DNA of 63,632 nt, counting the filler, from Collodictyon triciliatum (lineage: Eukaryota), in the NCBI GenBank assembly GCA_043381765.1. It is 14 parts of 14 records of this genome, joined end to end, with 100 filler letters (N's around TTAATTAATTAA, not from the genome) between each part and the next. Parts side by side here need not be neighbours in the genome. Positions count along the whole stretch, not along the records: positions 41,434 to 45,932 come from JBHJMP010006025.1; 13 more parts are not named here. One strand, 5' to 3'. Shown here one piece after another: positions 41,334 to 57,094 of the stretch. The position numbers were made by a program, and so were the translations under genes. Position 1 is the first letter of the stretch. Each line of letters opens with the position of its first letter. The notes beneath the pieces were generated by a model. The model had not been told where the DNA came from. It did not search any database and saw only the letters and a list, made by a program, of their open reading frames with translations.

Positions 41334-41589
41334 NNNNNNNNNNNNNNNNNNNNNNNNNNNNNNNNNNNNNNNNNNNNTTAATTAATTAANNNNNNNNNNN
41401 NNNNNNNNNNNNNNNNNNNNNNNNNNNNNNNNNTCTTCTCTCTTCTCTCTTCTCTCTTCTCTCTTCTCTCTTCTCTCTTCTCTCTTCTCTCTTCTCTCTT
41501 CTCTCTTCTCTCTTCTCTGGGTTTTGCCAAACATCTCTCAGTTTCTCTGTTTTCAGAGCTGTTCTGTTCACCACTCACGTTAACCTAGG

Positions 41590-42346
41590 GTCCACACTGG
41601 GGAACCAGCCGCGGCCTTCTCTGGTGTGATAAATTTTCTTCATATAACAGTAACAGTAATAGTAATAATAGTAATAATAATAATAATAAATAAATAAATA
41701 AATAAATAAAAAACGCGCATATTGGGGTTTCCATTTCTCTTGCTATTTCTTGTTCCTCGTTTCGTATTTGAATGGTTATCTGATTATCTCATCACCTTGT
41801 CCAATTCTTGCAGTACTCCCTCACAACAGCAGGCCAAGTGAAGCAGTGGATTCCAAATATCAAAGGCGAAATCAGCTTCTGTCTTAGGCAGATAGAAGGG
41901 AATAGGAATTACCCGCCTCATAAGATCAAAGTAAGCCATGCTACACAATTCAACGTGTTTCTCTTCATTTATTGGTGGTTCATATTATCAATCTATGGTA
42001 TATCTTCTCTTTCTTTCTTCCTTTCTTTATTCACTCTTACAAGAAAGTGAGGATGAACTCTCAGTCCATGAACTGTCTAATCAACGAAATAATCTCCTGA
42101 ATATACACACATGACAGGAATTTGAGCGACGCTTACAGGAGCTCGAGGCTGAATACAAACGATGGGTTAAACGAGCACAGCAACTTGATCCTGATTCCCT
42201 CGGGACACCCGGTGAACCGCACGAGTATTTCAGCAAGAAGCGAATGGCCGAACTGGTTAGTCCCACTTCCTGTCGGATTATTGCAAACAGACGATCGACA
42301 AAATCTTTGAAAACGAATATACCAACTGAATCAAAAGATACCTTAT
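41590..42346 (+). CDS. Small Isy1-like helical protein, partial
   Basis: Spliced QPRPSL|YSLTTAGQVKQWIPNIKGEISFCLRQIEG..KIK|EFERRLQELEAEYKRWVKRAQQLDP, resembling the Isy1 RP..W...I..EI and L..E...W patterns; clean GT-AG phase-0 introns. Confidence 0.45.
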
Positions 42347-43623
42347 AACGAACAGTATAGTATTTCTATTATAAAACCGTGGCTTGCTTGGTCATATATT
42401 TGATAGTGAAGATAAAAATAAATTGGTCATCAATCAACCTTTATCTGCTAATTTAGAAACATGGCCATAATACCCCTTTGTTACTTATGACACCTGATCC
42501 GCACACTACCAAAGTATTTGAATTATTCCATCGTATTAATGAATATGACAATTTCAAATAAAGATATTTTATGTCGCCATGCAGAAGTATATAAAATTTA
42601 CGGGAATGTTGATATTTCATTAGAGTCTTGTTTCACCTCTACTTGCCATGGACGACAGACAGCAAGCCAAGAAAGCTAAAAAAGAGTATGTCCACATCGT
42701 GCGATACCCTCTTTGAAAAACAACTATATTATGGTGTTTACTTATTTCAGTATATGTTTGTATGATTTGCAGAATAAGCCAAACTGAAAGCCAAGTTACC
42801 ACCGACAAGACACCTCCAGAATCTGTTTGTAAGGTTAATCAAGAAGTCCAACCATCACTCTCTTCATTGTTGTCTATCGGTGATGCATATCCATCCAGTA
42901 GTGAGGACAGTTCGGAAAGAGAGCGGGAAACCAACCATAGAGACAACAAATGATAGATTAAAGAAACTTTGCATGAAATGAAAAAAAAAGGGGGTGGTTG
43001 ACTATATTGAAATGAAATCTTGGAGATAGTTATATATTTGATATCCTTATCTTGTACATTTGAAGTCATTGTAAATGCCTTATGTTTCCAGTACCAAAAT
43101 ATGAATACCATAAAAAGACCTATCAAATTCTTAATGAAATTTCGATTTATTTATTTACTTTACCCCTCACAAAGATTCCTCCACACATGTTTCCCTTTTT
43201 TCTATTTTCACCAATCCAAAGCTTTCTATTTTATTCAACACTATTCCAAAAAAAAACCATAAATACTGAGTATCTTTCAATGCCTAATTTATCGAATTGC
43301 ATTTGCATTTAGGTGCATCCTAAAAAAAATCTCCTAAGAGGAACATATTATAGCTAGAAAATTATTCATAATGATGATAATTATTATGATAGTAATTAAT
43401 TTGTTGAGTCGCGCATTAGCTCGTCCAGTTTTAGGAAAAGCTGGTATTATCATGTGTGAATATGATGACATTCAAAATCATCAATGTTCAAATTACTGAA
43501 CTTATACTCGACTAGACTAGATTATTGAGTGATTCTGATTTATTCCGAGCAGTCACTTTTCTTCCTCTAAATTCCGTTTATTCCTTGGTTGATTTTACTC
43601 TACCATCCTCCAGCACATTCTCA

Positions 43624-44971
43624 TTCAATCTTGCCCAACATTTGGATGCGGTGATTGTCCCAGTTGCAAACATAGAGCATCTAATTCGGCCCAAAGCAGA
43701 CTCTCATGGGTCATTAAAGTGCCCGTTATTTGACGAAGACTGCGACGATGTGCCGAATGTGTGTACAACAACGTTGTCTTTTGTCGAGTTATAAACGCGG
43801 GTGTGATGATTTCTGTATTCACTCACCACAGTTGTGTTGTTTGGGCCTTGTGCAATCGAAACACGATAATTTACTTTATTAATCTTCACCTTGCGTAGAA
43901 ATGTCCCCATCACATCGCAAACTTTGATTTTATCTCCACCGAATCCAATCACACACACTTCGTTTTCTTGCAGTAATATAAATGCCTTCTGGATTTGCGA
44001 TTCCTTTATCACCCAACGATGACTCTGCAGATGAGCGTTCGTACTCAAACACTCTAATGAACTTATCCACTTGATTCTTTCCCTGATTTCCAACGTAGAG
44101 ATTGCCTTCGCTGTCAAATCACATATTGTAGACCCAGAAAATCCCCCAAAGTCGCTCGGTGATGTGCTTTGTGAACTTCTGCGACCCGATTGGATTGCCT
44201 CATCAGATTGAAGTTTTCATCAAAGATTTGAACACGACAACTTCCACCCTGCTCTCCAATAGCAATGCGTCCGTGAAGTGAAATGGCGACTCCGATTGGA
44301 TTATCGAATTGACCAGGGCCCGAACCTTTCGTGCCGAACGTGCAACAAAAGCTCAAATCATCGTTGAGCACTTGAACTCGACAGTTATTGTACTCTACAA
44401 CAAATATTTGCTTTGTCTCTGGATGCGCTGTGATTCCCCACGGATTAGAAAACTGCTGCGTTCCGCCTCCATATGACCCGACCTTCTTCTGAAATGCATA
44501 GTCTTTAATGTTGCATCTCCATGCCTCCTGGTACAAGCCCGCACCCTTTCTCTTATCTTGCTTCTCCTCCCAAATAAAGGGAAAAAAATATTGCTTCTCC
44601 TCCACTTTTCTCTTCACTTCCTCTGCCTTTTTAATCTGCTCCTTCATAGCTCGATGCTCCTGCACTTCGCTTTCCAACTCTTTCATCTGCTTGTCTCTGT
44701 CATCCATGAGCCTCTGCAACTCTATATTTCCTCTCCGCAGCTCATCCAACTCCGATTCAATCTTTGCGTGGACCTCCTTCAACAAATTCGCTACGCTTTC
44801 TCCTATCACGACATCACCTTCCACCTGGATGCCTTCTTTAATTTTCTGCAAATTCACATTGTTGACTTCTTCGATATCTATCTGCAAAACCGTGTGAGCA
44901 AACATGGCACTTTTGAGAAGCTTTGTAACAGTGATATCCTGCTCGTATATTAAATAAAACTCTCTGAGCAT
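43624..44971 (-). pseudogene. Intronless coiled-coil + NHL-repeat protein, disrupted at the 3' end
   Basis: FSNPWGITA..NCRVQVL, FGTKGSGPGQFDNPIGVAI, FNDP*ESAFGPN*MLYVCNWDNHRIQ; frameshifts near 44115 and 43975; two stops. Confidence 0.8.
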
Positions 44972-45128
44972 GGAAATTGAGTGCCATAGAATGTTCTCAG
45001 ATGTCTGTAATATGTGCCGTGTTTACTCGACTTTGTCAACTGCTGGTTTGTAAAGAGAGCATATTGGGTCTCAAAAGACTTTGGTGTTTATTGTTGTCCC
45101 TAGGAGAAAAGATAGAAAGTGGGTGCTA

Positions 45129-45344
45129 CTAGGCATAGAGTGGTCCCGTTAAGTACGAGGCAGGTAGACCCTTCTAGAGGGTTCCCTGGATGCTAGGCCT
45201 TTCCGGAATATTCCCTAGGGCTCTTTCCTGGGAGCCTTCATCATCACACAGCCATGTGAAAAAAGTAGTGAGACGTTGGGTACTGGCGCACCAAGTTAAC
45301 TAATCAATATATTGGTATACATACCAGTTTGCACAATAAATGTC
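45129..45344 (+). ncRNA. Orphan omega-RNA-like scaffold / non-autonomous Fanzor-end derivative
   Basis: 45222-45304 matches the minus strand of 368-451 at 65/84 positions (manual alignment); similar 3' motif GCACAATAAATGTC vs GCAGAATAAAATGCC; no Fanzor coding sequence upstream. Confidence 0.6.
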
Positions 45345-45853
45345 TTATCCTATCATGCAAATACAATGACAGAATTCAAAAAATCAATGTTACATATATG
45401 TTCCAGAATTATGAACCGTTGAGTTTACTTTTCAGGGTGATGTCAACAAAACCCACATCAGAGAAAATCAACGCGGTCTGTGTTGACGACAAATCTGTGT
45501 TATTCAACACTCTCGTTAACGCCATGTTTCGAGACAAGTAATCAAACTACACTTTTGGACACAACCCCACTCGAAACCGAATCCACCGATCAGCCTCGTT
45601 TGCAAAGATCAGAGGCCCGCCGATTAACCACCCACTGAAAGTCATACCTTCGTTTCATTTTTCCGTTCTGTCTCGTGGCTGAGTCAACGCGCAGAGAATT
45701 GCGCCCGACTTATTCCCTGCTTCAGCCGGTTCATTTTGGGGTGATTGACCTTCCTCTCCCCTTATGCTTTGATCGAGTTGATAACATGTTTTTTTTTCTT
45801 CTTTGCTATGTATTTTGTATTTTACGTTCTTTTTTTTTTTTTTTTTTTTTAAC

Positions 45854-45896
<43 letters not shown>

Positions 45897-46032
45897 TTTT
45901 TTTACATGTTTTTATGTTTTTTTTTTTTTTTTNNNNNNNNNNNNNNNNNNNNNNNNNNNNNNNNNNNNNNNNNNNNTTAATTAATTAANNNNNNNNNNNN
46001 NNNNNNNNNNNNNNNNNNNNNNNNNNNNNNNN

Positions 46033-55128: not shown

Positions 55129-57094
55129 NNNNNNNNNNNNNNNNNNNNNNNNNNNNNNNNNNNNNNNNNNNNNNNNNNNNNNNNNNNNNNNNNNNNNNNN
55201 NNNNNNNNNNNNNNNNNNNNNNNNNNNNNNNNNNNNNNNNNNNNNNNNNNNNNNNNNNNNNNNNNNNNNNNNNNNNNNNNNNNNNNNNNNNNNNNNNNNN
55301 NNNNNNNNNNNNNNNNNNNNNNNNNNNNNNNNNNNNNNNNNNNNNNNNNNNNNNNNNNNNNNNNNNNNNNNNNNNNNNNNNNNNNNNNNNNNNNNNNNNN
55401 NNNNNNNNNNNNNNNNNNNNNNNNNNNNNNNNNNNNNNNNNNNNNNNNNNNNNNNNNNNNNNNNNNNNNNNNNNNNNNNNNNNNNNNNNNNNNNNNNNNN
55501 NNNNTTTTTGTTTTTTGTTTTTTGTTTTTTTGTTTTTTGTTTTTTGTTTTTTGTTTTTTGTTTTTTGTTTTTTGTTTTTTTGTTTTTTGTTTGGTGGTTT
55601 CTTTTTTATTGACAGAGACAAACCTTTTCCGAGGAGGCCACGCGAGACAAGTGAAAGGCAACTTTGGACGAGCCGACGTTTTGCTGTATGTGGTAGGAGC
55701 GGACGAGACCGTGCGAGGAAGCGGCAAAGCAGCGGATTTGAGCCGCAGTCAGCTTCAGCATCCCGAGCAAGTCCTGGACGCTATTGCAGTCAGAAAGCGA
55801 GAGACTTGCGGGTGTGCGTGACTAAACACTCGCCAAAGAACAATACAACAGCGACAGCTATAGAGCAGCCAAAAAGAATGAAAAAAAAGGAGAAGAAGAA
55901 GAAGAAAAAGAAAAAGAAAAAGAAATACAGATGAATGGAAAAAAAAAATCAATCGGAAAAGACGTCAACGCGAATCCGACGCGGTTTCGTGTGTCATGTG
56001 TTGCGCGAGAAGGGTGGTTGAAAAGGCGTGTAATCAAAGAAGGGTGGTGCGAATCTTTCCTTCCCAACAGACACACGAAGCGCGTGAGACACACAGAGTT
56101 GTGCCGGACAAAGGAAGCTGCCTATAACGCTTGAAGCCGACTTGCCGAACAAAGTCGCAGAGAGGCCAAGCAAAGTGGAGGAGAAAGGGAGGAAATAAGG
56201 GGAACGAGTCGGCTTTGCGGATCGATTTACAAAGCAGCCGCACGCACAACCTAACGCCAAACACCTTCCACACAAAGCACACAAACATCTTTATGTGCGT
56301 ATATACATACGTGCATGCATATATGCACAAGTACTTAACGTCCCTTATCCCGTCGGCTCGATGCCTACAGAGGCTAATTATATGGCAGAGCCCAGCGGAC
56401 GCGACATCCCAAAGGCCTCTTCGAACTGCGGCTCTTCTGTCTTGTCTGAGTGGTATGTAACATCTCTTTTTGCGCCTCTTGCAAGGAATGTGATAAAAGA
56501 AAAGGCGAGTAGGGAGGATAGGTTGTCGTGTTTTCGCAGCGCCCCAGAGCTTATTTTGCTTGTGGTGGTCCTCTCTTTGTGTACAGCAAAGGAAGTCTCC
56601 GTCATTCACAAGCTCATGCATACCGATTCGACTCAGGGCCGCGCGAAGATCTCTCGAGTTCACAAGCCCGAGCCAAGGAAGTCGTTCCAACCCATCTTCG
56701 TACAAGACTGGAGAAAGTCCGCTCAGTCATAGTTCCCTCACAAGAAACACGTTGAAGGTTCACTTTCTTTTTTCTTTTTTCTTTTTTCTTTTTTCTTTTT
56801 TCTTTTTTCTTTTTTCTTTTTTCTTTTTTCTTTTTTCTTTTTTCTTTTTTCTTTTTTCTTTTTTTTATTTTTCTTTTTTCTTTTTTCTTTTTNNNNNNNN
56901 NNNNNNNNNNNNNNNNNNNNNNNNNNNNNNNNNNNNTTAATTAATTAANNNNNNNNNNNNNNNNNNNNNNNNNNNNNNNNNNNNNNNNNNNNTAATAGTA
57001 ATAGTAATAGTAATAGTAATAGTAATAGTAATAGTAATAGTAATAGTAATAGTAATAGTAATAGTAATAGTAATAGTAATAGTAATAATAATTA

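Follow-up and report, generated by a model that had tools for sequence, protein, structure and literature searches.

Results

Two homologous segments on separate contigs

The window analysed here, a stretch of 63,632 bases, comprises 15 pieces, most of them ~4.5 kb in length, with spacers of the form N44-TTAATTAATTAA-N44 between them; in total the analysis covered ~60 kb of the genome. G+C content ranges from 27 to 45% across the window in 2-kb steps, and microsatellites are present. One piece contains a run of 376 N (55129-55504) that is unlike the 44-N spacers and marks either a gap in the scaffold or sequence that has been masked or withheld. Two of the pieces share a segment of ~120 nt, referred to here as copy A (contig 1) and copy B (contig 10): the former shares its strand with a decayed Fanzor1-type gene, whose C-terminal tail it immediately follows and overlaps, and the latter has no such gene beside it (Table 1).

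Table 1. Coordinates of the features discussed in the text; positions are those of the window except where a locus name precedes them.
Feature	Position	Strand	Basis or remark
Contig 1	1-4505		Carries copy A and the Fanzor1-type pseudogene
Copy A, scaffold at the 3′ end of the Fanzor1-type pseudogene	329-454	-	Inside open frame 330-701 (-)
Core of A, equivalent of scaffold helices 2 and 3 in the relatives	403-433	-	R1 positions 37-66
Decayed Fanzor1-family gene (pseudogene)	474-2356	-	tblastn of P0006, an intact 634-aa relative
Contig 10	41434-45932		Carries copy B
Coiled-coil/NHL-repeat (TRIM-NHL-like) exon-like open frame	44114-45022	-	Pfam NHL, E 6e-8; context only
Copy B, orphan Fanzor1 right end with omegaRNA-like scaffold	45219-45340	+	Local alignment and blastn against copy A
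Core of B, corresponding to helices 2 and 3 and the A-rich strand	45239-45268	+	R1 positions 39-64
Place for a guide, were B transcribed as an omegaRNA	45341-45360	+	Flank past the A/B similarity; putative
Example elements of the metagenomic clade	L008:3351-3503; L009:4223-4374		Six-helix 3′ element of ~150 nt

The homology of A and B is real. Local alignment of copy B with the minus strand of copy A gave 93 identities in 120 aligned positions and a score of 50, compared with 11.5±1.4 (maximum 17) in 300 shuffles, and blastn reported 72.7% identity over 128 columns (E ~1e-15 in a window-sized database). The 65/84 identity of 45222-45304 with the minus strand of 451-368, on which the first-pass annotation of this DNA had been based, was reproduced exactly by global alignment, and the identical core that it described is a 12-nt block found once per copy, at 45255 (+) and, as the reverse complement, at 406; the two copies are also, as it stated, on different contigs. 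Similarity extends beyond those 84 positions, so that copy B runs from a first hairpin (GGCTC...GAGCC) through to a terminal ...CAATAAA, and it stops in both copies at ...(G/C)AATAAA with no continuation upstream into the Fanzor gene. Apart from low-complexity matches it is the sole similarity detected by blastn between contigs 10 and 1, and no third copy was found by blastn within the window; a tblastx comparison of the two contigs was set aside because low-complexity matches swamped the output. Two DNA patterns representing the A/B consensus gave 0 matches each in viral contigs and in prokaryote genome contigs, and no Rfam family matched the window at gathering scores.

Copy B is an orphan and a probable right end

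Earlier claims that copy B lacks a nuclease gene and that stops interrupt the sequence upstream of it were both borne out: six family proteins used as tblastn queries on contig 10 gave a best E of 2.7, and all three frames of the 196 nt upstream (45023-45218) carry 3-4 stops. Because the A/B similarity ends at the 5′ edge of the scaffold, copy B is not a uniformly decayed copy of a full element. The next feature upstream is the NHL-repeat frame, which is on the opposite strand and ends ~200 nt before copy B; the closest Atlas clusters to this frame are animal NHL/TRIM proteins with scores of at most 0.84, which we treat as a lead only. Two short blocks that resemble each other, GGTTCCCTGGATGC and GGCTCTTTCCTGGGAGC, lie ~40 nt apart within 45160-45240, just upstream of and at the 5′ edge of copy B, and may have arisen by a minor duplication at this site or be what is left of helix 1.

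Eight public sequencing runs contain the stretch around copy B, all of them DNA from freshwater or lake metagenomes in which it has a low share, and there is no RNA run containing it among the public runs listed. Four of these runs were aligned at 80% likeness, yielding five contig pieces with a depth of ~2; a raw-read run gave no reads, and no further copies came to light. The contig pieces differ from the window around copy B at 0-2 positions (X2 over 45065-315, X1 over 45098-248 and 45270-420, and X4 over 45211-466), with the 5′ edge of copy B spanned by one clear and one borderline piece and the 3′ edge by two. Since these contigs, which derive from independent public runs, cross both edges, the orphan context of copy B is not an assembly join, with the caveat that one of the runs may be the source of the window itself.

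No inverted partner of the last 17 nt of copy B was found in the window at up to 3 mismatches, nor one for the terminus of copy A, either at up to 3 mismatches in 17 nt or by repeat search. Contig 10 has only weak inverted repeats, rich in A/T and lacking collinearity, and a decayed left end at copy B is possible. A 24-nt inverted match of 75% between the core of A (405-428) and 3059-3082 was taken as chance among 48 pairs.

The gene beside copy A is a Fanzor1-type pseudogene

The intact relative P0006 aligned by tblastn to contig 1 over its whole length, in two blocks: residues 1-413 fall on 2356-1136 (E 2.3e-27), and the second block pairs residues 421-603 with 1010-474 (E 5.9e-43). A piece of the gene (705-1037 (-)) matched the solved Fanzor1 chains of Parasitella (9cf0, E 6.8e-4), Spizellomyces (8gkh, E 0.083) and Guillardia (9cer, E 0.2). 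The RuvC-III motif TRDFNSAKNI starts at 548 and the second CxxC of the zinc ribbon is present, within an open frame (330-701 (-)) that holds the motif and continues through the whole A segment to a stop at 332-330. There is no intact reading frame for the gene as a whole: 18 stops interrupt the frame of 2356-1136 and one that of 1010-474, and in the zinc ribbon (625-704 (-)) the first CxxC is legible only in the neighbouring frame, with a stop at 702-704. This frame slip and stop imply that conserved blocks have suffered two indels close together as well as a stop, which introns cannot explain.

Searching 333-701 (-) against 1.84 billion representatives with phmmer returned 14 matches at E ≤1e-3, and a PDB search with the same piece returned nothing relevant, as did Pfam on the Fanzor pieces. 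Among 77 candidate long proteins, none was close to the C-terminal piece of copy A at E ≤1e-3. The closest relative of that piece, at 69% identity, is P0001 (136 aa, from a 582-nt contig), in which a frame slip after the RuvC-III motif matches one alternative frame of copy A; P0001 is thus a second decayed copy of the same lineage in public data. Another match, P0009 (426 aa, from a 2.85-Mb contig), has a tandem-repeat unit that matched residues 97-121 of the read-through tail of A in six stretches (E 2.4e-4), which is probably chance or a satellite. Long (ATT/AAT)n microsatellites are situated at 2437-2540, a short way upstream of the start codon of the Fanzor gene (2356), and at 3420-3540, and they may have erased the left end of the element.

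Fanzor1 relatives carry a structured 3′ element

Scanning metagenome contigs with a query composed of the C-terminal piece of copy A and 15 aligned relatives (alignment A2) identified 29 loci, the proteins of which are 28-58% identical to that piece. Five further loci came from viral contigs, of which two are the same large contigs and one is labelled as a giant-virus MAG. The clade formed by L001-L021, L024, L026 and L028 comes from lake and marine metagenomes, and some of its members are on contigs of 173 kb and 254 kb that also exist as viral or giant-virus MAG records. When 330 nt from the RuvC-III motif onwards were aligned, the relatives proved to have a strongly conserved, structured element of 131-172 nt that starts ~66 nt past the motif and ends at a terminal TGTAAA, directly after which their sequences diverge.

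Alignment A3 was restricted to 15 of the 29 loci, leaving out those cut by a contig end (L005, L013), duplicates (L010, L021 and L026, of L008, L020 and L024 here), those with large indels or decay (L007, L018, L019, L028) and those without a scaffold of this type (L022, L023, L025, L027, L029). RNAalifold predicted 26 pairs for A3, 17 of them with compensatory changes, and the addition by eye of one pair and two helices gave a structure of 39 pairs in six helices. Over the 15 loci, 89.2% of cells in this structure are paired, compared with 75.5±1.1 in shuffles, and double-sided changes occur at 23 of the 39 pairs, compared with 14.3±2.1; none of 500 shuffles reached any of five measures, and sliding the partners by 1-3 columns lowers pairing to 37-48%. 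Pairing is lowest in helices 5 and 6, at 79.5% and 65.3%, due in part to poor MAFFT alignment of that half. G-U pairs are numerous, and they are compatible with the sense strand alone.

A covariance model built from A3 (R1), which contains neither copy A nor copy B, matched 24 of the 29 loci, with one match each, always on the gene strand and at the Fanzor 3′ end; for 15 of the loci the match is by construction, and nine are outside the model, three of the nine being duplicates. In most loci the ORF stops ~100 nt into the scaffold, and L001, L002 and L012-L014 stop earlier and still keep the scaffold. In this clade the scaffold overlaps the last ~34 codons of the gene. Retention of the scaffold whether or not it is translated argues for constraint at the RNA or DNA level. 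At the scaffold terminus, 24 nt constitute the right inverted repeat of the transposon in 7 of 15 loci (L003, L004, L008, L009, L016, L020, L021), where they are found again upstream in inverted orientation with at most 2 mismatches and mark elements of 2.3-3.3 kb; no such partner was found at up to 6 mismatches in the other 8, some of which have little upstream sequence. In a sister subgroup (L022, L023, L025) the protein tail differs and R1 has no match, and the 3′ region is conserved among all three.

By our analysis the element of the relatives matches the published Fanzor design, in which the omegaRNA overlaps or follows the end of the ORF and spans the right inverted repeat, with a flank-derived guide 3′ of the scaffold (Saito 2023, PMC10432273). 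Overlap of an omegaRNA with the coding tail is itself known, amounting to 17 aa in GtFz1 as described by Saito 2023, in contrast to ~34 codons in the clade described here, and the fRNA is likewise reported to overlap the TIR (Jiang 2023, PMC10530073).

Relationship of A and B to the element of the relatives

An unfiltered cmsearch of the window with R1 (127 kb searched) returned eight matches at E ≤10, among which the core of A ranked second (8.7 bits, E 1.6 over the window) and the core of B fifth (6.9 bits, E 4.6). Within the 301-nt regions where a match was expected, the corresponding E-values were 0.0074 for A (250-550) and 0.022 for B (45100-45400), all of these values being rough as calibration was shortened. 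Both matches are on the predicted strand and involve the same part of the model, namely outer helix 2, inner hairpin 3 and the A-rich 3′ strand; they are weak and span just 26-30 of its 155 positions. The core of A lies 115 nt past the RuvC-III motif, compared with ~106-110 nt in the relatives, and the tail of A aligns to their conserved tail motif. R1 recognised neither helices 1, 4, 5 and 6 nor the invariant linker of the relatives in A or B, and when A and B were compared with the 29 loci by blastn, the coding RuvC-III motif was the sole match and no scaffold similarity appeared. Read by eye, A and B carry hairpins at two equivalent positions, the first in place of helix 1 and a longer one in place of the invariant linker, and their terminal (G/C)AATAAA resembles the TGTAAA or TATAAA terminus of the relatives. 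We consider it likely that the A/B segment belongs to the same structured element. The first-pass annotation had called it an omega-RNA-like scaffold, and this description holds in so far as the segment occupies the same place as the covarying RNA of the relatives and both cores are found by R1, at scores that are weak.

Folded singly, the copies do no better than shuffled sequences, with z-scores of -0.87 for B and -0.39 for A, and of -0.51 and -0.35 for the opposite strands. RNAalifold applied to the A/B pair gave 23 pairs at -16.2 kcal/mol, compared with -5.7±2.7 in 500 column-shuffled alignments, none of which was as low, and the reverse complement of the pair folds nearly as well (-14.25). 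A fold common to A and B is plausible. An earlier argument that pairing had survived divergence through a compensatory swap (GGCTG/CAGCC vs GGCTC/GAGCC) could not be upheld: the swap hinges on the choice between two similarly good alignments of the 5′ edge, and the three double changes in the RNAalifold structure of the pair were equalled or exceeded in 47% of 500 column shuffles. A compensatory argument from two sequences carries no weight.

Discussion

Here we describe an orphan segment, copy B, that is homologous to the sequence at the 3′ end of a Fanzor1-type pseudogene on another contig. We interpret copy B as the solo right end, or omegaRNA-scaffold relic, of a Fanzor1-carrying DNA transposon, most likely decaying and probably not a working guide cassette, and assign this reading a probability of roughly 0.6. 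In an intact element the equivalent ~120-nt stretch encodes the omegaRNA scaffold and ends at the transposon terminus; when the element is active, transcription in the same direction as the Fanzor gene yields an RNA that folds into several hairpins bound by the nuclease and continues into ~15-20 nt of flanking DNA that act as the guide, a design established for SpuFz1 and other Fanzors. Deletion or truncation of a full element would have cost copy B both the nuclease gene and any left end that can be recognised. The A/B segment was presumably once an omegaRNA, and copy B is presumably now inactive. Both copies are old, and we favour a decaying relic because they have diverged by 23% and no Fanzor gene other than a pseudogene was seen. 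An intact Fanzor and further copies may lie in the genome beyond the ~60 kb covered. The position of the transposon boundary in the A/B lineage is one that we infer from the relatives only.

The AATAAA motif at which the A/B similarity stops is also a poly(A) signal. Copy B may therefore possibly have arisen as a 5′-truncated retrocopy of the 3′ end of the Fanzor mRNA. In a count by hand the 18 nt past AATAAA are identical between A and B at 8 positions, and an A-rich stretch comes next in B.

Comparison with known systems bears directly on how the relic should be named. Saito 2023 (PMC10432273) described 134 strongly conserved ghost Spu-1 loci in Spizellomyces punctatus, each with ~550 nt between two 30-nt inverted repeats, and the comparison in one figure legend of the same paper takes in ghost loci of three other species. 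Copy B resembles these loci, as described there, in having a Fanzor-like omegaRNA right end with no Fanzor ORF beside it. It differs in that the ghost Spu-1 loci are complete small elements with two repeats, whereas copy B has no detectable left repeat, and in that they exist in 134 copies and were shown to work with SpuFz1, whereas copy B is the sole orphan seen in ~60 kb, is 23% diverged from the Fanzor-linked copy and has a pseudogene as the only Fanzor gene seen. Without two inverted repeats, copy B is better named a solo right end than a ghost locus of the published type. As far as the published descriptions go, the canonical Fanzor1 omegaRNAs of SpuFz1, GtFz1 and PpFz1 (Saito 2023; Xu et al. 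2024, PMC11423790) are alike in their position at the ORF 3′ end, on the same strand, in running into the right inverted repeat and in taking a guide from the flank. Of the two copies, A alone occupies such a position, past the RuvC-III motif (548) and within frame 330-701 (-); A and B have no sequence or Rfam match to the canonical omegaRNAs and are known here from DNA alone. Taking in the viral loci, the metagenomic and giant-virus clade (L001-L034) is similar to A and B in the core formed by helices 2 and 3 and the A-rich strand and in the terminal motif, and dissimilar in that its helices 1, 4, 5 and 6, its invariant linker and its 24-nt terminal repeat are unrecognisable in them.

Copy B could alternatively be an active ghost omegaRNA locus: a transcript of the + strand would be processed to give the scaffold with a guide starting at 45341, and an intact Fanzor whose gene lies in another part of the genome would load it. 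Such loci are known to function, as ghost omegaRNAs that lack an adjacent Fz gene work with SpuFz1 in human cells (Saito 2023, PMC10432273), and copy B retains the common segment in full, its first hairpin and terminal motif included. The consensus fold of the A/B pair is compatible with activity, and in the model alignment the equivalent of helix 3 pairs without mismatch in B, where A has two non-standard pairs. However, B is a single orphan separated from A by considerable divergence, the one Fanzor gene seen is a pseudogene for which the 77 candidates include no close long relative, and a second inverted repeat was not found, in contrast to the published ghost loci. Covariation between A and B is within chance, and on our reading of the alignments two of the six pairs in the outer stem of A are broken in B. 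We therefore regard an active locus as unlikely. A further-reaching version, in which an animal-like freshwater eukaryote keeps a set of transcribed nuclease-free omegaRNA cassettes, copy B included, that are loaded in trans by an intact Fanzor1 and share a scaffold lineage with the Fanzor1 elements of giant viruses, strikes us as very improbable.

Two other explanations would dispense with a Fanzor right end at copy B. The A/B segment might be an unrelated dispersed repeat, such as a fragment of a SINE or MITE, that landed behind the Fanzor pseudogene by chance: just two copies are known, one of them not beside a Fanzor, and the link to the scaffold of the relatives consists of weak model matches over ~30 nt with no blastn similarity. 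Against this, the A segment is inside an open frame that continues from the RuvC-III motif and is unbroken at the would-be insertion site; the core of A is at the same distance from the motif as helices 2 and 3 of the relatives, both cores are on the right strand and rank second and fifth of eight in 127 kb, and the tail of A aligns to the conserved tail motif. Chance insertion thus appears quite unlikely. It is less probable still that the similarity reflects the protein-coding C-terminal tail only, with copy B a coding scrap rather than part of an RNA element. The whole A segment is indeed in frame with the gene up to its stop, and over the first 29 codons 7 of ~20 differences are synonymous third-position changes in a count by hand, but dN/dS is near 0.5 by a rough estimate that at these numbers is indistinguishable from 1. 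Moreover, 13 of the 14 phmmer matches end at query residue 59-76, whereas the A/B segment begins at about residue 83, and the fourteenth is the tandem-repeat protein P0009, taken for chance. We rejected the coding-only reading because copy B needs a frame shift and then meets an early stop, and because relatives that stop early (L001, L002, L012-L014) keep the scaffold. The solo right end of a decaying transposon accordingly is the reading that we prefer.

Neither nuclease-less omegaRNA loci nor the idea of guides acting in trans is new, since both have been published: Saito 2023 (PMC10432273) found ghost omegaRNAs to be active with SpuFz1 and proposed a trans-acting guide repertoire. As it stands, copy B is one more decayed transposon end. 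An active copy B would take ghost guide loci beyond a chytrid fungus and into an animal-like genome, offering a testable case of a Fanzor programmed in trans; and if a whole set of such cassettes were kept, each would aim the nuclease at its own flank, amounting to a natural multi-guide system in an animal. The more useful and reusable result is the well-supported six-helix scaffold of ~150 nt in the metagenomic and giant-virus Fanzor1 clade, the covariance model of which could be used to annotate Fanzor1 elements of this kind together with their nuclease-less derivatives.
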